This document shows positions 5,229-37,760 of a stretch of 54,993 bases of DNA, one piece after another. Under the pieces are notes generated by a model. That model saw only the letters and a program-made list of their open reading frames with translations, ran no database searches and was not told where the DNA came from. Origin of the DNA: a virus (taxonomy: Duplodnaviria; Heunggongvirae; Uroviricota; Caudoviricetes); IMG/VR virus record IMGVR_UViG_2923302340_000009, positions 1 to 54,993 of that record; one strand, given 5' to 3'. The stretch's first letter is position 1. Every line of letters begins with the position of its first letter. A program made the position numbers and the translations under genes.

Positions 5229-5245
5229 GTTCTGGGTTATAAAAT

Positions 5246-8647
<3,402 letters not shown>

Positions 8648-21104: not shown

Positions 21105-22424
21105 TTACACTGGTGTGTTCAGCAAATCGTTAACGGCATCAGATGCCGGGTTACCTGCAGCCAGCGATGCCGGTGCCCCCTGCATCAGACGATCCAGCGC
21201 AGTGTCACTGCGCGCCTGTGCACTCTGTGGTGCTGCGGCCAGAATGCGGCGGGCCGTTTCCACGGTCATACCGGGGGTTTCTGCCAGCACGCGGGCCTGT
21301 TCTTCGCGTCCGTGAGCCTCCTCACAGTTGAGGATCCCCATAATGCGGCTGTTTTCTGCCGCAACCGCAGCGGTGATCTGCGCGTTCACGTCCGGCTGCG
21401 CCGCGCTGGCGTTTTCGCCCTCCGTCGCTGGCACCACGTCAGTAACGTCAGCCTGCGAAGCAGTGGCTGAAACAGTTGTTGATTGAGTCTCTTTGGTCAT
21501 TCGCCCTCCTGAGAGACGGGATTTACGTGCATCCAGTGCATCACGCATAACGGTGATCGCATCGGTACTGTTAACAAGTTCATCAGCCAGTCCGGCATCA
21601 ATGGCCTCCTGACCGCTGTACACTGCAGCCTCGGTATCCAGCACAGCCTGCACAGACAGGCCGGTATATGCCGACACCTTCTGCGCAAACATCTGGCGGG
21701 TTGCGTCCATCCGGGACTGCAGTGTCTCCCGGACGTCATCCGGAAGATGGCTGTAGGGATTGCCATCCACCTTATGGCTGCCGCTGTAAATCAGCGTGAT
21801 TTCCACGCCCTGTTTCTCCAGCGCAGCACCGTAATTGCTGTGAGCCATCATGACGCCGATGGAGCCTGTCCGGGCGGTCTGCGTGACCAGACGCCGGGAG
21901 GCGGCGCTGGCAAGCAGCTGACCTGCACTGCAGTTCATGTCGTTGGCCAGCGCCCATACCGGTTTTATGTCTCGCACACGGGCGATGATGTCAGCACAGT
22001 CAAATGCTCCCGCCACCATCCCGCCCGGTGTGTCCATATCCAGCAGAATGCCGTCCACCATCGGATCGCTGGCAGCCTGTTGCAGACGGGCGATAATGCC
22101 GTTGTAACCGGTCATCCCCGAGTACGGCTGCAGCGCCCGCGTCCGGCTGACCAGCGTACCGGACACCGGCAGCACGGCGATGCCGTTCATGACCTGATAG
22201 CTGCGGGCCTGTCGTGGTCCGTCATCATCACCGGATATCGCCAGCGCCGCGGGTGCCTCTCCGGCAGTCAGGCTGTCGCCGGATACTGCATCCGTCAGGC
22301 GGCTGATCCCAAGCTGGCCTGCAAGCGCACAAAAGAAAACCCGCGCATAGGCGGGTTCAAGCATCAGCGGCTCATTAAAAGCCATGCTGGCAATATGCGG
22401 GAGATTACGCAGCTCTGCTGTCAC
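21105..22424 (-). CDS. C: head protease/minor capsid protein C (with in-frame scaffold Nu3)
   Basis: Matches lambda gpC from VTAELRNLPHIASMAF (GTG start); overlaps 3' end of B. Confidence 0.9.
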   Translation of the reverse strand: MTAELRNLPHIASMAFNEPLMLEPAYARVFFCALAGQLGISRLTDAVSGDSLTAGEAPAALAISGDDDGPRQARSYQVMNGIAVLPVSGTLVSRTRALQPYSGMTGYNGIIARLQQAASDPMVDGILLDMDTPGGMVAGAFDCADIIARVRDIKPVWALANDMNCSAGQLLASAASRRLVTQTARTGSIGVMMAHSNYGAALEKQGVEITLIYSGSHKVDGNPYSHLPDDVRETLQSRMDATRQMFAQKVSAYTGLSVQAVLDTEAAVYSGQEAIDAGLADELVNSTDAITVMRDALDARKSRLSGGRMTKETQSTTVSATASQADVTDVVPATEGENASAAQPDVNAQITAAVAAENSRIMGILNCEEAHGREEQARVLAETPGMTVETARRILAAAPQSAQARSDTALDRLMQGAPASLAAGNPASDAVNDLLNTPV

Positions 22425-23184
22425 TCTTCTCCTCCTCTGTTGATTGTCGCAGTCCGGATTCAAATGCCGCAGCCGCCCAGGCGGGCGGTTTAAGACCGGC
22501 TGCACGGCGCTCCATCGTTTCACGGACCTGCTGGGCAAAAATTTCCTGATAGTCGTCACCGCGTTTTGCGCACTCTTTCTCGTAGGTGCTCAGTCCGGCT
22601 TCTATCAGCATCACCGCTTCCTGTACTTCTTTCAGACCATCGATGGCCATACGACCGGAGCCTATCCAGTCACAGTTCCCCCAGGCACTGCGGGCTTCCT
22701 GAAAGCTGAAGCGCGCTTTTGAAGGTAACGTCACCACGCGGCGAACGATGGCCTCTTCCAGCCAGCACAGAAACATCTGGCTCGCCTGACGGGATGCGAC
22801 GAATTTTCGCCGCCCCATAAAGTACGCCCACGACTCGTTCGCGCTGGCCCGTGCCGTGGAGTAGCTCATCTGGGCGTAATTCCGGGAAAGCTGCTCATAC
22901 GAGACACCCAGCCCGGCAGCGATATACCGCAGCAGTGACTGCTCAAACACGGAGTAGCCGTTATCCGTATCCTGAGCCGTCTGCAGGTTCAGTGAGTCAC
23001 CCGGCATCAGGTGCGGCACTTTTGCGCCTCCAAGCCGGACCGGCGCTGCGGCGTAATACGCGGCAATTTCACCAATCCAGCCGGTCAGCTTGTCCCGCTG
23101 CTCCTGACTGTTCGCGCCCAGAATAAAATCCATCGCTGACTGCGTATCCAGCTCACTCTCAATGGTGGCGGCATACATCGCCTT
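22405..23184 (-). pseudogene. B: portal protein B, C-terminal segment (codons 277-533) separated from N-terminal segment by the inserted island
   Basis: MYAATIESELDTQSAMDF... to end matches lambda gpB C-terminus; preceding codons KA retained at the junction. Confidence 0.9.
23172..23184. repeat. left copy of 13-bp direct repeat (catacatcgcctt) bounding the island; putative att core
   Basis: Same 13-mer with one mismatch (cataaatcgcctt) at 34071..34083; lambda portal sequence is continuous across one copy. Confidence 0.7.
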
Positions 23185-23256
23185 TATGAAAAGACAGGAA
23201 AAAATAAAATTTAAAAACAGTACATTACGAATGCTCAGACCTATCGTTTAAAGGAG

Positions 23257-23280
23257 TCGCAATACACACTGCAATACACG
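23257..23280. repeat. two tandem copies of GCAATACAC motif near left island end (putative integrase/AlpA arm sites)
   Basis: tcgcaatacacac tgcaatacacg; same motif three times at right end 33894..33947. Confidence 0.5.
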
Positions 23281-23619
23281 ATTATTTATAAGATGAGCGG
23301 CATCCGTCATAAAGCTGGTGGATGCTTTTTCTATGCATATATGCACAGTTTTAGTGGGCGTTAATGTCGATATAGGGATCCCCATATCGAGATTGGATAC
23401 CTGGCTTTTTTCCGGTTAACCTTTAATCAGGCTGGTGGGCTTTACCTGTTTTGTATGAGTGGTCATCATGACCATGTCATAACAAAAACCCCATATTCGT
23501 GGTTTTTCTGTGTCGGGCTATTCTGTCGTTGCTGTGCTGATTTGGCTGGTGGGCTGAATCATCATTACGGCGATGCAGCTATGTAGACGTTCCGGCCTCC
23601 TCAAATTGAGGATTGTGGA

Positions 23620-23980
23620 AGAATCAATGGGTTAGTCTTACTTTCCCGACATCCCCCAATGGGGGTTTTCGAAACAATCAATAGCTTAGGCTTACTTCCC
23701 CGATTTCCTGCATTGCAGGTTTTCGAAATAATCAATGGGTTAGGCCATCGTGCAATTTTGCACTTTGCCAGCCAGCGCAATGTCGCGTTATCAGTCCTCA
23801 GATGTGAGGGATGTAGCCAGCTTTTCCCCCAGTGGGGGATATCCAGCACCGACGGCTTAACTGTGCGTGCCAGCACAAGGTAGCCTTGAACTACTTACTG
23901 CATCCCATCTTACAGGCCGTGCCTTCCTGCTTAACTTTTTGCAATGCAACAAGTCAGCCAGCGCAATTTTGCGTTATCGG
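23620..23980. repeat. array of about 54-bp periodic repeats (aatcaatRgSttagg) each followed by a short GC palindrome and ttttcgaaa
   Basis: Three units starting near 23622, 23676, 23730; palindromes cccccaatggggg, cctgcattgcagg, gtgcaattttgcac, cccccagtggggg; second family cagccagcgcaatNNNgcgttatc twice. Confidence 0.5.
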
Positions 23981-23993
23981 GAATATCAGCAAG

Positions 23994-24275
23994 TTACCGC
24001 CGCAATCGTTCCGGCTTCTTCCACTGGTAAGTATTTTTCGCGCTCTCCCTCCGTTGTTGAGAAAGGCGACGATATGCCAGCAACTCAAGGACTCTTGTTC
24101 GTATGTTGCGCATATCCACGCCGTTAAGCTCAATACCGTCACGGCGCATCACCTCAGCCACTACACGCACATAATTATCTGCGGTCACGCTGTCCGGCTG
24201 CGTGGCCTGTTCGTCATGCTGCTTGCTGATTCCACAAGCACGGCGGATTAATCGCAGTATTTCGGATTCAGTCAT
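23994..24275 (-). CDS. hypothetical protein (island packaging module)
   Basis: 93-aa ORF 11 nt downstream of TerS-like gene; no recognisable family. Confidence 0.45.
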   Translation of the reverse strand: MTESEILRLIRRACGISKQHDEQATQPDSVTADNYVRVVAEVMRRDGIELNGVDMRNIRTRVLELLAYRRLSQQRRESAKNTYQWKKPERLRR

Positions 24276-24286
24276 AGCGTACTACG

Positions 24287-24829
24287 TTACTTATCTTTAT
24301 TCGGCTGCAACTTATCCGGTACGTTTCCGGCAGTTTCCATCAGATAATCGGACAGCATCAGCGGTATGTTTTCGTCAAGTTTTGCGCATGCGTTACAGGC
24401 TCTGATAACTTCTTTTTTCAGTCCATCCAGCATAGACGGCTTCATGTCGGGAAACTTCCTTGTCATGGCAAGCGGCAGGCTGTCCATGATTGAAGAAATC
24501 TGACTCGCCAATTTTGAAAGCACGTATATACAAAACGCTGTATCAATAACGTCGCCGCGTTCGCGCTCGTTTTTAAGCTCCTGCGCCTCTGCCTGTGCTG
24601 TCAGCAATCTGATCCTGACTCGTAGGAGTTCATCATCATCAATCTCGCCTTTGTCGTCTGTAATCTGGTTAATTGCATTGCTAACCCGATTGTCTATTAC
24701 GCTGGCAACATCATAAAACGCCTCGCGGCCTTTACGTTCAACGGGAGTCACTCCCCACTTGTCGAACGCTGTCGCACTTACACGGCAGCTTTGCGCCATG
24801 TTTTTTTTGTTCATCAGGTGCGATTTCAT
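24287..24829 (-). CDS. terminase small subunit-like protein (lambda Nu1 homologue) encoded by the island
   Basis: Aligns with lambda Nu1 core LTRAQADAQELKN...AFCTFVLSRIAGEIASILDGIPL; ATG at 24829 preceded by GGGGA; lies downstream of island cos. Confidence 0.75.
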   Translation of the reverse strand: MKSHLMNKKNMAQSCRVSATAFDKWGVTPVERKGREAFYDVASVIDNRVSNAINQITDDKGEIDDDELLRVRIRLLTAQAEAQELKNERERGDVIDTAFCIYVLSKLASQISSIMDSLPLAMTRKFPDMKPSMLDGLKKEVIRACNACAKLDENIPLMLSDYLMETAGNVPDKLQPNKDK

Positions 24830-24940: not shown

Positions 24941-25010
24941 TCATAAATAGCGAAAACCCGCGAGGTCGCCGCCCCGTAGCCTACCGGATCACCGGAAAGG
25001 ACCCGCCAGC
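24941..25010 (-). other. island cos site with canonical lambda-type cosN (GGGCGGCGACCT) and lambda-like cosQ-side flank, divergent cosB side
   Basis: Plus strand aaatagcgaaaacccgcg AGGTCGCCGCCC cgtagcctaccggatcaccggaaaggacccgcc (cosN 24963..24974); paralogous to prophage cos at about 37700. Confidence 0.75.
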
Positions 25011-32633: not shown

Positions 32634-33875
32634 TCACACCACCTCTTTATTAAGCTCGATAACGTTGTTGTTAAATCCTGCTATCGTATTAAGGTAATTA
32701 ACCCACATATTAAGCACCTCAAGTTTTTTCTTTATATGCCTGCTTTTATTGTAAACACCAGCAACCCCTTTCACTTTATGACCTAAAAGAAGTTCGACAA
32801 TATAAGGATCCGCCCCCATATCATTAAGCGTAGTGGAAAATGTGCGCCTGAAATCATGTATGCACCACAAGCCATTAGTATCATGACCAAGACGCCTGCA
32901 TATTCTGTTTGCAGCCCCTGTTATTGTCGCCCTTTGCAAAGCACAACCGACAACATAACCGCGATTTTTTGTTTCTGCGTAAAGATTAACGATCCATTGT
33001 TTTATTCCGTCAGGAACAGGCCTTACTATAGCCTCCTTGTTTTTGCTGTGCTCTTTTGGGACTGTCCATACCCAGTTTTTTAAATCCCATTCGTCCCAGG
33101 TGGATAGCCTCGCCTCCTGCTGTCGGCAACCAAACACCAGGCAGATAACCATTATTCTTCGGTTATATATTGATGACAGAGTTAGCAAATTATTACCGTA
33201 AGCATAAGACCATACATCAGCGGTTTCATTGATATTAAGAACGCGATCCCTTATACCGGATGAGCGCCCGACATAACTTACGTTAATATCTCCAAAGGGA
33301 TCGCACGCGATGTATTGCCTGACGCGACAAAAACGCAACGCCTGTTTGATATCAAGAAAAATTGCACCAGACATAACAGGCGCATTTTTTTTGATCCTGT
33401 CAAAGACGGTAAGCCATGTGTGTAATTTGCACTGTTCTATAGCCATATCACCGATATAGGGGAAGATATGCTTTTCAAATCGTTTTATTAAATATTCATG
33501 CTCTTTTCTGGCTGTTGTGGCGTGATTGTCGTACCAGTAAAACAGCGCATCCCTTACGGTCACTGGTTGCATAGTTTTTTCGGCAGCAAGTTTTATTTGC
33601 CTGCGGGGGTCCAGATTTTCAGCCAGCCATTCACGGCACTGATCACGCATGCGCCTGGCCGTTGCAAGAGACATGTCAGGATAGCGACCAAGTGTAAGCC
33701 ATACCGGAGGGAATTCCCTGCCACCAAGACGATAGTAAAAAACAAAGCTGATCCCCCCAACCATGCTTACACGCACAGACAACCCGCGCCCATCCGCTAT
33801 TGTTTTTTGTTTGTCCTGCCGTTTTCCGACAAGACTCTTTAACAGTTTGTCACTGAGTTTGTTTTCAATAGCCAT
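32634..33875 (-). CDS. int: P4-type tyrosine integrase
   Basis: 413 aa; P4-like N-terminal arm-binding region and C-terminal HDFRRTF...LLGH...Y catalytic region; adjacent to island end. Confidence 0.85.
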   Translation of the reverse strand: MAIENKLSDKLLKSLVGKRQDKQKTIADGRGLSVRVSMVGGISFVFYYRLGGREFPPVWLTLGRYPDMSLATARRMRDQCREWLAENLDPRRQIKLAAEKTMQPVTVRDALFYWYDNHATTARKEHEYLIKRFEKHIFPYIGDMAIEQCKLHTWLTVFDRIKKNAPVMSGAIFLDIKQALRFCRVRQYIACDPFGDINVSYVGRSSGIRDRVLNINETADVWSYAYGNNLLTLSSIYNRRIMVICLVFGCRQQEARLSTWDEWDLKNWVWTVPKEHSKNKEAIVRPVPDGIKQWIVNLYAETKNRGYVVGCALQRATITGAANRICRRLGHDTNGLWCIHDFRRTFSTTLNDMGADPYIVELLLGHKVKGVAGVYNKSRHIKKKLEVLNMWVNYLNTIAGFNNNVIELNKEVV

Positions 33876-33893
33876 TAAAAGCCCTCAAGAGAT

Positions 33894-33947
33894 TTGCAAT
33901 ACACACCCATCCCGATCGCCAATTTGCAATACACATTGCAATACACA
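33894..33947. repeat. three direct copies of TTGCAATACACA next to integrase start (putative arm-type binding sites)
   Basis: Copies at about 33894, 33924, 33936; same motif at left island end. Confidence 0.55.
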
Positions 33948-34023: not shown

Positions 34024-37004
<2,981 letters not shown>

Positions 37005-37030
<26 letters not shown>

Positions 37031-37550
37031 TCAGCAACCCCGGTATCAGTTCATCCAGCGCGGCTGCTTTGTTCATGGCTTTGATGATATCCCGTTTCAG
37101 GAAATCAACATGTCGGTTTTCCAGTTCCGGAAAACGCCGCTGCACCGACAGGGGGATCCCGTCGAGAATACTGGCAATTTCACCTGCGATCCGCGACAGC
37201 ACGAAAGTACAGAATGCAGTTTCCACCACTTCAGCGGAGTCTCTGGCATTTTTCAGCTCCTGTGCGTCGGCCTGCGCACGCGTAAGTCGATGGCGTTCGT
37301 ACTCAATAGTCCCTGGCTGGAGATCTGCCTCGCTGGCCTGTCGCAGTTCTTCAACCTCCCGGCGCAGCTTTTCGTTCTCAATTTCAGCATCCCTTTCGGC
37401 ATACCATTTTATGACGGCGGCAGAGTCATAAAGCACCTCATTACCCTTCCCACCGCCTCGCAGAACGGGCATTCCCTGCTCCTGCCAGTTCTGAATGGTA
37501 CGGATACTCGCGCCGAAAATGTCAGCCAGCTGCTTTTTGTTGACTTCCAT
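37005..37550 (-). CDS. nu1: terminase small subunit Nu1
   Basis: 181 aa, matches lambda Nu1 (MEVNKKQLADIFGASIRTIQNW...). Confidence 0.96.
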
Positions 37551-37699: not shown

Positions 37700-37760
37700 A
37701 AATTTTCATAAATAGCGAAAACCCGCGCGCCTTCCGCCCCGTAGCCTGCCGGATCGCCGG
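37700..37760 (-). other. prophage cos region with variant cosN (GGGCGGAAGGCG instead of GGGCGGCGACCT)
   Basis: Flanks match lambda cosQ and cosB sides; 12-nt cosN at about 37728..37739 differs from lambda at 5 positions as I recall it. Confidence 0.6.

Follow-up and report, generated by a model that had tools for sequence, protein, structure and literature searches.

What does a run of GC-rich palindromes and repeated motifs do in a non-coding arm of an E. coli phage satellite? The question is raised by a window of 54,993 nt (the whole stretch of viral DNA that was analysed), in which a preliminary description made from the letters alone had marked three units of roughly 54 bp. That description favoured small RNAs or terminator-like 3' ends, loosely recalling the RNA-based immunity of P4, and named a reiterated regulatory target or protein-binding array as a fallback. 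Our results support the fallback, as the array appears to couple predicted sites for IHF, a DNA-bending protein of the host, to operator-type palindromes. To the complete explanation, in which a composite Roi/Rha-plus-IHF site array traps or neutralises foreign phage proteins, we assign a probability of about 0.5.

The units themselves are real. A repeat finder returned three contiguous 54-nt copies at an exact spacing of 54 (23592-23645, 23646-23699 and 23700-23753), 65-72% identical to the reference copy, so that the trio is in phase over 23592-23753; TRF reported a period of 54, 2.3 copies and 80% matches. The motif aatcaatRgSttagg, the ttttcgaaa stretch and the differing GC palindromes (tcctcaaattgagga, cccccaatggggg, cctgcattgcagg) that had been described are all present, as are two copies of cagccagcgcaat-N-gcgttatc (23769-23792 and 23955-23978), which the repeat finder scored as 92% identical. 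Each palindrome had been assigned to the motif preceding it, but it belongs with the motif that follows: the natural register of a unit is palindrome, 10 nt, then AATCAAT..TTA, and the distance from palindrome centre to IHF motif is 17, 17, 17 and 16.5 nt in the four complete units of the window. The feature is slightly wider than the originally proposed 23620-23980, running over about 23592-23996, and a fourth related unit, D, stands apart from the trio (23955-23996). All parts are listed in Table 1.

Table 1. Features of the array and of the adjoining non-coding arm; positions refer to the window, and operator classes and cognates are predictions.
Feature	Position	Strand	Sequence elements	Operator class	Predicted cognate (basis)
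HE-PICI attP arm motif	23255..23268	-	TGTGTATTGC; att-proximal edge of arm; partner copies 33892-33947		
Three co-oriented Chi sites	23314, 23431, 23545 (23313..23553)	+	GCTGGTGG; same non-coding arm, adjoining array		
Unit A	23592..23645	+	palindrome TCCTCAAATTGAGGA 23598-23612; IHF consensus AATCAATGGGTTA 23622-23634	CCTCA	Roi alleles with helix K-RHD-N, phi330 type (recognition code)
Unit B	23646..23699	+	palindrome CCCCCAATGGGGG 23653-23665; IHF consensus AATCAATAGCTTA 23676-23688	CCCCC	S-RHD-K/H helices, VT2-Sakai/HK629 roi type (recognition code)
Unit C	23700..23753	+	palindrome CCTGCATTGCAGG 23707-23719; IHF consensus AATCAATGGGTTA 23730-23742	CCTGC	HK022/CP-1639 roi type, helix S-R[PH][DS]N-VK[IV]S
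Palindrome	23750..23763	.	GTGCAATTTTGCAC; no IHF consensus here		
Degenerate copy of unit D	23769..23792	+	cagccagcgcaatgtcgcgttatc; imperfect palindrome, IHF core lost		
Palindrome	23796-23809	.	CCTCAGATGTGAGG; without IHF core		
Palindrome	23825-23839	.	TCCCCCAGTGGGGGA; without IHF core	class-B operator sequence	
Palindrome	23939..23949	.	TTGCAATGCAA		
Unit D	23955..23996	+	palindrome CGCAATTTTGCG 23962-23973; IHF consensus TATCAGCAAGTTA 23984-23996		

This arrangement departs strongly from chance. Each of the four complete units carries an exact IHF consensus (WATCARNNNNTTR), and four of the eight strict consensus sites found on both strands of the 55 kb fall in the array, all on the plus strand (23622, 23676, 23730 and 23984); from this consensus, occupancy of the array by IHF is predicted. 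Between 23340 and 24000 there are 11 perfect palindromes whose arms measure 5 nt or more; 500 dinucleotide shuffles gave 2.9 +/- 1.7 (maximum 9), and no other sliding window of that size has as many. The unit palindromes are symmetrical as 6-1-6 about one central base, and so fit a two-fold protein site better than an RNA loop, and the 54-bp repeat corresponds to about five helical turns. Several other palindromes of the arm have no IHF core and no source gene that we found. The opinion that the array is neither CRISPR nor a set of iterons proved correct: the units are contiguous and 65-72% alike with a palindromic variable part, and no cas-like genes are present among the ORFs examined; what the units conserve is the IHF consensus, and over 4 kb separates them from the primase gene. 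An integron attC, considered because of a GTTAGGC core, was rejected as the inverse core is absent, and a tRNA/tmRNA scan found none.

The element that carries the array is a helper-embedded PICI (HE-PICI) in a lambda-like prophage. It splits the portal gene at 23187 and about 34024 and encodes Int, HTH, Bro-N, primase, SSB, capsid, decoration, AlpA-like and terS in that order, with a tyrosine integrase. Its position inside the portal gene, its co-orientation with the late operon, the succession of integration, Bro, replication and late zones and the doubled TGTATTGC arm motifs are those of the HE-PICIs of Tommasini, Mageeney and Williams (2023, PMC10111431). The element has been described but the array in it has not; the text of that paper makes no mention of palindromes, hairpins or non-coding regions. 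It occupies the terminal non-coding arm, which in the integrated element is the end far from int/alpA. The array is indeed close to att, as had been proposed, but it lies outside the attP defined for this class of satellite, whose arm motifs, not IHF-like, stand at about -81 and +132 of the centre (PMC10111431); here the arm motif ends at 23268 and the array starts at 23592. A role as attP arm was rejected in view of this distance and the published definition, and a cos function was rejected because the exact lambda cosN (24963-24974) is upstream of terS, outside the arm. Lambda attP (H1, H2, H') and cosB (I1) resemble the array in having exact WATCARNNNNTTR cores with an upstream A/T tract near att or cos, whereas the array is outside the attP span, 1 kb from cosN, and ties each IHF site to a foreign operator-type palindrome.

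Conservation of the units in related islands had been proposed as a check, and it was found. The array is identical in 48 genomes, RefSeq annotates no CDS over its identical copies elsewhere, and similar, shuffled arrays are present in the terminal arm of every E. coli PICI examined, in the combinations A-B-C, A-B, A-C, A, C and others. The array-bearing PICIs are integrated at portal, terL, capsid, clpS, phoQ, dinD and pao sites; the module is common to PICIs at different sites while the att-proximal 190 bp differ, and the arm as a whole is a patchwork of short modules that recur piece by piece in over a thousand E. coli genomes. Over all loci examined, at least 10 different palindromes are centred 16.5-17.5 nt before the IHF core. 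Parts that lack an IHF core in the window can have one elsewhere: in other PICI arms GTGCAATTTTGCAC precedes TATCAACCAGTTA by 17.5 nt, and the degenerate copy at 23769-23792 has an intact relative (cgcaatgttgcg+ttatcgggaaTATCAGCACGTTA) in locus L008.

The origin of the units was indicated by comparison with phage genes, in which each of them aligns, in the sense orientation, with a different roi/antirepressor allele. Units A, B and C share 48/54, 48/54 and 41/54 positions with their best roi allele but 35-39/54 with neighbouring units, so that full-length identity to natural roi alleles is 76-89%, and the shorter stretches aligned by BLAST to roi/antirepressor genes are 88-96% identical. Unit A is 96% identical over 50 nt to the phi330 antirepressor gene, unit B 90.6% over 53 nt to codons 43-60 of VT2-Sakai roi, and unit C 87.8% to CP-1639 roi and 96.3% over 27 nt to the Stx2a_WGPS6 antirepressor. 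The palindrome of unit B is perfect in the array, whereas its counterpart in the Sakai gene is imperfect (ggtgg). HK022 roi contains cctgcattgcagc, 10 nt and then AATCAATGATTTA, and in the Sakai and HK022 genes the spacing from palindrome centre to IHF core is the same as in the units. Unit D resembles the equivalent segment of classical Rha genes (32/46 to agcgcatttttgcgtttccgaaaaAATCAATAAGTTA of Rha genes L184-L263), and TCCCCCAGTGGGGGA also occurs within a metagenomic Rha/Roi gene of the S-RHD-K type. A scan of genome contigs with the unit motif gave mostly single matches in unrelated phyla, most likely due to chance, the exception being a Serratia roi-like gene.

The array nevertheless does not lie inside a gene for a cognate protein. 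Neither tblastn nor a profile search detected a Rha/Roi domain in the window, annotation lists none for the helper prophage of a genome that has an identical array, and no annotated CDS covers the sites. The roi frame is open across 23583 to 23883, but in the related locus L005 an 11-nt deletion destroys it and spares the palindrome and IHF sites. A decayed roi pseudogene or an in-frame repeat protein was rejected for want of a plausible start and of flanking roi homology, and is also opposed by the different source allele of each unit and the broken frame in relatives. An in-frame mobile mini-element inserted in roi genes was likewise discarded, since every homologue has the 18-residue segment as an intrinsic portion of its Rha domain.

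Across 130 distinct Rha/Roi genes, the equivalent codons spell out a 13-nt palindrome, CCnCMAnTKGnGG. In genes as distant as about 50% amino-acid identity, the codons for P-[PQ]-x-[VEGA] are palindromic in a single register: on average 5.3 of 6 pairs are mirrored there, compared with 0.9-2.3 for the remaining registers, and none of 5000 column shuffles reached the observed total. A synonymous base covaries with the amino acid three codons on (CCT-GAG, CCA-GTG, CCC-GGG, CCG-GCG). In an alignment-anchored tabulation of the 130 sequences, the variable palindrome bases track three residues of a putative recognition helix. The raw counts, which are inflated by linkage because the site sits within the gene for the protein itself, are as follows: at positions 3/11, residue x of R-H-D-x pairs N with T.A (41/41), S with A.T (40/45), H with C.G (6/9), D with G.C (11/13) and K with C.G (12/21, the remaining nine being C.T as in the imperfect Sakai palindrome); at positions 4/10, residue i+7 pairs R/Q with C.G (110/110) and I/T/V with G.C (14/17); and at positions 5/9, residue i pairs K with A.T (23/25) and S/A with C.G (97/104). 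Among pairs of different x class that are at least 75% identical elsewhere, 743 of 829 switched concordantly, and such switches between close relatives are evidence against a pure linkage artefact. The code was first seen in viral contigs and was replicated in metagenome contigs.

In this covariation K/H goes with G, D with C and N with A, as is usual where proteins read duplex DNA. The G.T combinations at the innermost pair of 6 of the 24 distinct palindromes are equally compatible with RNA or a single-strand hairpin. Because palindrome bases track helix residues, Rha/Roi proteins appear to read a site within their own gene, and we infer the pairing of protein and site from this covariation. 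Units A, B and C each have six of six mirrored pairs in the form CCnCMA-n-TKGnGG; the classical-Rha form CGCA-TTTT-TGCG was accepted as an alternative and applies to unit D (CGCAATTTTGCG). Very probably, then, the units are Roi/Rha-operator plus IHF sites, their class specificity being predicted by the code. With no Rha/Roi protein encoded in the window, they would be orphan operators, matched to three or four specificity classes of foreign origin.

Rha prevents phages from growing in hosts defective for IHF, and the rha genes of phi80 and P22 are IHF-dependent. Clerget and Boccard reportedly found in 1996 that HK022 Roi binds a site in its own gene beside an IHF site, and that IHF stabilises this binding. 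The HK022 site shares with the units the palindrome class (cctgcattgcag, against cctgcattgcagg in unit C), the 10-nt spacer, the IHF consensus and the 17-nt geometry. Phage roi/rha genes, however, have one coding-constrained site per genome, inside the cognate gene, whereas the array has three or four tandem non-coding sites of different classes, and a cognate gene is absent from both the element and its helper. Roi gave no relative when solved structures were searched and no match in PADLOC, and it is not known as a defence protein. To our knowledge, no arrays of heterologous aba elements have been described. The aba element of prophage BTP1 and its relatives lies at the 5' end of the gene for a phage DNA-binding growth inhibitor; it acts as DNA, is an antidote specific to its own variant of that protein, and works in trans only when present in many copies (Owen et al. 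2021, PMC8585504). An IHF consensus (core AAATCAAATGGTTA) is present within its 63 bp, but this core is all that it has in common with the array (otherwise no meaningful similarity, E = 7): aba has terminal CCCGCC direct repeats instead of palindromes, and BstA has a KilA-N-like domain instead of the Rha plus ANT domains of Roi, so that the array is not kin to BstA/aba.

We propose that the array acts as double-stranded DNA, as a row of composite protein-binding sites. Each unit would combine a 13-bp two-fold operator of one Roi/Rha class with a high-affinity IHF site, in a fixed geometry that places the operator centre 17 bp before WATCAR and repeats every 54 bp. The units would be copies of the in-gene sites of lambdoid roi/rha, stripped of the gene, with three or four classes set side by side in the terminal non-coding arm of the PICI. 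We infer from the sequence that Roi and IHF bind there. A gene for such a protein is absent from the satellite and from its helper, so the occupants would have to be Roi/Rha proteins of other phages, resident or infecting, with IHF of the host acting as co-factor. A replicating, multi-copy satellite could in this way soak up or neutralise phage Roi/Rha proteins, the array serving as a multi-allelic DNA antidote much as aba does against its cognate abortive-infection protein BstA. This role in neutralisation or as a decoy, drawn by analogy, is a tentative assignment. Against it, the helper prophage has no roi, so there is no obvious partner in the immediate setting.

The same site evidence would also serve a phage sensor or switch, in which a Roi/Rha-IHF complex signals lambdoid phage growth and changes how the satellite excises, replicates or is transcribed by read-through; with several operator classes, a broader set of phages could be sensed. 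PICIs are known to depend on helper-phage cues, the array is in the terminal arm next to the att end at every locus examined, and units phased so strictly at 54 bp point to a higher-order complex, not to traps that act one by one. Yet the satellite could not sense its own helper, which encodes no Roi/Rha, and the integrated array is at the end far from int/alpA with no promoter-like site adjoining, which leaves such a switch unlikely. A role for IHF alone, as phased bends for integration or excision, packaging or replication with incidental palindromes, would explain four exact sites in one orientation near att and 1.0-1.4 kb from the satellite's cosN, and IHF sites are standard in attP, cosB and origins. 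We consider it very unlikely, as the class-specific palindromes at a fixed distance and their identity with roi operators would go unexplained. Moreover, the HE-PICI attP reaches no more than about 81 to 132 bp out from its centre and is reported without IHF motifs (PMC10111431), the array begins about 400 bp from the junction, the module is common to PICIs whose att-proximal 190 bp differ, and the cos region upstream of terS is 1 kb off.

PICIs capture helper DNA, and the array might be non-functional debris, scraps of roi/rha caught at recombinogenic palindromes and left in a gene-poor arm. The mosaic structure of the arm would agree with this, as would visible decay at 23769-23792 and in the broken B palindrome of loci L035 and L348. 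However, only the site-bearing piece of about 54 bp is ever present, trimmed at similar boundaries from at least three alleles; its palindromes are perfect even where that of the source gene is imperfect, its IHF cores keep the exact consensus, its 17-nt geometry is invariant over at least 10 palindrome types, and the array is the same in 48 genomes and recurs in differently integrated PICIs. Debris is therefore quite improbable. Small RNAs, or stacked weak intrinsic terminators or attenuators transcribed from the plus strand, were suggested by GC-rich stems followed by UUUUCGAAA in units B and C, and compensatory stem differences fit RNA helices, with an innermost G.T in some gene alleles. 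This reading, with its loose analogy to P4, is not supported. No Rfam family reached gathering thresholds in the whole window, and a permissive search of 23100-24400 stayed at chance level (E = 6.7); the unit hairpins do not qualify as terminators, no promoter-like site is present upstream on the plus strand, and a U tract is missing from unit A. The folding z-scores, modest at about -1.9, are the same for either strand, which is what DNA palindromes should give, and the helix-residue covariation follows duplex-DNA preferences, so that an RNA function is scarcely credible. We therefore retain the array of composite Roi/Rha and IHF sites as our explanation.

A wider generalisation is more doubtful: Rha/Roi and the palindrome in their own wing-coding codons, with IHF as co-factor in enteric phages, may be a widespread protein-antidote pair of the BstA-aba type with a simple three-residue code, and PICI arrays may be tandem antidote libraries that disarm the regulators of competitors. 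If this were so, the array would be a protein-free, DNA-only, multi-allelic counter-measure against the growth-inhibiting regulators of competing phages, and the failure of phages with Rha/Roi on IHF mutants, a phenotype known for decades, would reflect loss of self-immunity. DNA-based cognate self-immunity would then join in one hypothesis the IHF requirement of Rha/Roi, BstA-aba and the conflict between satellites and phages.

Our findings give a concrete identity to the conserved non-coding arm of E. coli PICIs, which published descriptions leave blank, and suggest that Rha/Roi, a large family of phage regulators most often labelled antirepressors in annotations, has a predicted operator within its own coding sequence. 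With the three-residue to three-base code, specificity can be predicted from sequence, and the code could be re-engineered. Should the array titrate phage regulators, it would amount to a satellite weapon consisting of binding sites alone, a class of counter-defence that gene-based searches do not see.

The array region holds three 54-nt units, A, B and C, lying head to tail at 23592-23753, and a further unit, D; the unit length and number given in the preliminary description were reproduced, as were its two copies of a second motif. The region contains 11 perfect palindromes, against 2.9 ± 1.7 in shuffled sequence, a count unmatched by any stretch of the same size in the window. The conserved unit motif, aatcaatRgSttagg, fits the IHF consensus WATCARNNNNTTR exactly, and the strict form of this consensus occurs only eight times on both strands of the window, with four of the eight sites in the array, all on the + strand. 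Motif and palindromes had been recognized earlier, but in inverted order: the correct register is palindrome, 10 nt, IHF core, with the palindrome centre 17, 17, 17 and 16.5 nt upstream of the core in the four complete units.

In BLAST searches of phage genomes, unit A aligned with sense-strand sequence within the phi330 antirepressor gene (96% over 50 nt). Unit B, likewise in sense orientation, fell within roi of many Stx phages as well as of VT2-Sakai and HK629 (90.6% over 53 nt), and unit C matches CP-1639 roi and the Stx2a_WGPS6 antirepressor. The matching gene piece encodes residues 43-60, directly after the helix-turn-helix. Natural roi alleles of each of these classes are present in viral contigs, and HK022 roi, the allele used for experimental Roi work, carries cctgcattgcagc followed after 10 nt by AATCAATGATTTA, a site of unit C class and equal geometry. 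Unit D shares 32/46 positions with the corresponding segment of classical Rha genes. Local duplication followed by drift was rejected as the origin of the array because units A, B and C are closer to their nearest gene alleles (48/54, 48/54 and 41/54) than to neighbouring units (35-39/54).

Rha/Roi N-domain genes with amino-acid identities as low as about 50% were gathered from contigs of viral and metagenome origin. Where these genes encode P-[PQ]-x-[VEGA], a 13-nt palindrome, CCnCMA-n-TKGnGG, arises in a single codon register only, and at least five of six mirrored pairs are complementary in 61 of 62 distinct segments. Mirrored pairs averaged 5.3 in the palindrome register versus 0.9-2.3 in every other, and none of 5000 column shuffles reached the observed pair total. 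Protein-level constraint cannot account for this covariation, because in the first proline codon the third base is synonymous and still varies with the residue encoded three codons on (CCT-GAG, CCA-GTG, CCC-GGG, CCG-GCG); in addition, CAA (Q) pairs with xTT (I/F) and CCA (P) with xTG (M/L/V). An IHF core lies beside the palindrome in enteric alleles and was absent next to it in 39 of 39 metagenome relatives examined.

Across 130 distinct sequences, the variable bases of the palindrome change with three residues in the putative recognition helix, x0-R-H-D-x4-V-K-x7. Positions 3/11 are T.A when x4 is N (41/41), A.T when it is S (40/45), C.G when it is H (6/9) and G.C when it is D (11/13); with K they are C.G in 12/21, and the remaining 9 are C.T, like the imperfect Sakai palindrome. 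Positions 4/10 are C.G with R or Q at x7 (110/110) and G.C with I, T or V (14/17), and positions 5/9 are A.T with K at x0 (23/25) and C.G with S or A (97/104). The code is family-wide in the Rha/Roi genes of L102-L181, L264-L343 and L352-L431, among the loci compared with the window. Found first in viral contigs, it was independently replicated in metagenome contigs, and the base switched concordantly in 743 of 829 pairs that were at least 75% identical outside the code residues and differed in x4 class. The residues are spaced i, i+4, i+7 and so occupy one helix face; pairing of Lys or His with G, Asp with C and Asn with A follows the usual major-groove read-out preferences. Since the operator is written in the codons right after those of the recognition helix, specificity and site pass on together as a single block. 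From these patterns we conclude that Rha/Roi proteins are likely to bind the palindrome within their own gene. This prediction agrees with work by Clerget and Boccard in 1996, in which Roi reportedly binds a site in its own gene adjoining an IHF site, with binding stabilised by IHF.

A tblastn search and a profile built from the family detected no Rha/Roi domain in the window, and the helper prophage of a genome with an identical array has no roi and an ordinary nin region; the array units are therefore orphans. Units A, B and C are predicted to be operators of three Roi specificity classes, each with an IHF site, and unit D probably contributes a classical-Rha class. Selection appears to act on the sites and not on coding, since the B palindrome, imperfect in the Sakai gene, is perfect in its array copy, a related array has lost its reading frame through an 11-nt deletion that leaves both sites intact, and the 17-nt geometry is constant over at least 10 palindrome types across loci. 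We regard the array as a set of Roi/Rha operator plus IHF sites, with a probability of roughly 0.85.

The window is a lambda-like prophage with tail genes, in which a 10.8-kb element with every gene on the - strand interrupts the portal gene. Its genes, cosN and doubled arm motif fit the helper-embedded PICIs (HE-PICIs), a known satellite class with an integrase clade directed at prophage late genes (PMC10111431). Between the att junction and the last satellite gene is a non-coding arm of 800 bp, which contains the array. The satellite cosN has lambda-like cosQ flanks, followed by its own cosB and a terS whose resemblance to Nu1 is confined to the C-terminal, TerL-binding half. Upstream of Nu1, the helper cosN differs from that of the satellite at 5/12 positions; the helper may have an impaired cos or one of a different type. 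The conserved 93-residue protein always adjoins the array in capsid/terS-type PICIs and is missing from array-bearing perC-type and terL-inserted ones. Ten of the 12 Chi sites (GCTGGTGG) of the window fall in the satellite, and three co-oriented ones within 240 bp adjoin the array (23314, 23431 and 23545); because their orientation fits RecBCD entering at the satellite cos end and heading to lower coordinates, they suggest end protection for a Gam-less satellite.

Coordinates of the array, satellite and helper features in the window
Feature	Position	Strand	Remarks
Unit A	23592-23645	+	class CCTCA; predicted reader K-RHD-N helices
Unit B	23646-23699	+	class CCCCC; predicted reader S-RHD-K/H helices
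Unit C	23700-23753	+	class CCTGC; predicted reader S-R[PH][DS]N-VK[IV]S helices
Unit D	23955-23996	+	
Second motif	23769-23792, 23955-23978		
Strict IHF sites	23622, 23676, 23730, 23984	+	in array
Element break points	~23187, ~34024		
Head protease	21105-22559		helper
TerL	35105-37030		helper
Nu1	37005-37550		helper
Helper cosN	~37735-37746	-	GGGCGGAAGGCG
Tyrosine integrase	32634-33875	-	satellite
Small HTH protein, Bro-N protein		-	satellite
D5-type primase, SSB		-	satellite
Major capsid, decoration and AlpA-like proteins		-	satellite
Small terminase (terS)		-	satellite
93-residue protein, function unknown	23994-24275	-	satellite; phrog_1561; no Pfam hit
Exact lambda cosN	24963-24974	-	satellite
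Doubled arm motif TGTATTGC	23255-23268, 33892-33947		satellite
Chi	23314, 23431, 23545, 27395, 29015	+	satellite
Chi	24920, 27421, 28754, 30352, 31653	-	satellite
Recurrent arm modules	23363-23394, 23460-23474		also L004 (another locus) 6785-6850, 7305-7370

Of 5426 complete E. coli genomes, 718 have matches to the array region, a count that includes roi genes themselves, and in 232 genomes at least 80% of the query is covered. Non-coding arrays occupy terminal arms in PICIs that interrupt portal, terL or capsid genes, as well as in PICIs adjoining clpS, phoQ, dinD and pao; they are placed after late genes or after perC, a usual PICI accessory gene. Unit sets are reshuffled among arms (A-B-C, A-B, A-C, A alone, C alone, hybrids, other palindromes), and some near-identical arms differ solely by the unit carried. 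Another PICI arm (L349, ~2465-2487) has a 23-nt perfect palindrome, cttttccaccaatggtggaaaag, around an CCACCAATGGTGG operator of the S-RHD-S class, so arrays hold further operator classes. Other modules, the near-palindrome tcgatatagggatccccatatcga followed by agattggatacctggcttttttccggttaa, and TGGTCATCATGACCA, are repeated inside single satellites and from satellite to satellite. One perC-type arm (L036) also carries defence cargo, an AbiD-family abortive-infection gene (5232-6254) about 0.7 kb upstream of perC and 1 kb from the array. The array was rejected as part of attP, because the att-proximal part of the arm varies with integration site, the array module is common to satellites, and the published attP reaches only ~81-132 bp from the centre and is reported without IHF motifs; the text of that paper mentions no palindromes, hairpins or non-coding regions (PMC10111431).

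Rha blocks the growth of phage in IHF-defective hosts. Tentatively, we suggest that the array neutralises Roi/Rha: proteins from other resident or infecting lambdoid phages would occupy the units together with IHF, and the satellite, once replicating, would offer three or four operator classes in many copies and sequester them as a multi-allelic antidote. The same binding could instead serve a phage-sensing switch, a less likely use given that this satellite's own helper lacks Roi. That the array is non-functional recombination debris is improbable, as its sites are perfect and its geometry invariant. A purely architectural role for IHF seems slightly more doubtful still, and the small RNAs or terminators proposed earlier are very improbable.

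The closest functional precedent for neutralisation is BstA-aba. The aba element is a short stretch of DNA at the 5' end of a phage gene whose product is a DNA-binding growth inhibitor; it neutralises only the cognate protein, acts as DNA and needs high copy in trans, and IHF is never mentioned in that paper (PMC8585504). In the 63-bp BTP1 aba, the two essential CCCGCC repeats flank an IHF consensus match, AAATCAAATGGTTA, for which we roughly estimate a chance of ~0.004 in 63 bp on both strands, and aba weakly matches window 23713-23745.

A single Roi and IHF site within HK022 roi is reportedly known already. The literature searched gave no account of satellite arms with tandem arrays of orphan operators from several classes, of an in-gene palindrome conserved throughout the Rha/Roi family, of the three-residue recognition code or of the IHF consensus in aba. 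The array belongs with operator/IHF composite sites, possibly used as aba-like antidotes. Abortion of Rha/Roi phages on IHF mutants would then reflect loss of self-neutralisation, and the IHF consensus in aba predicts that aba function would be IHF-dependent.
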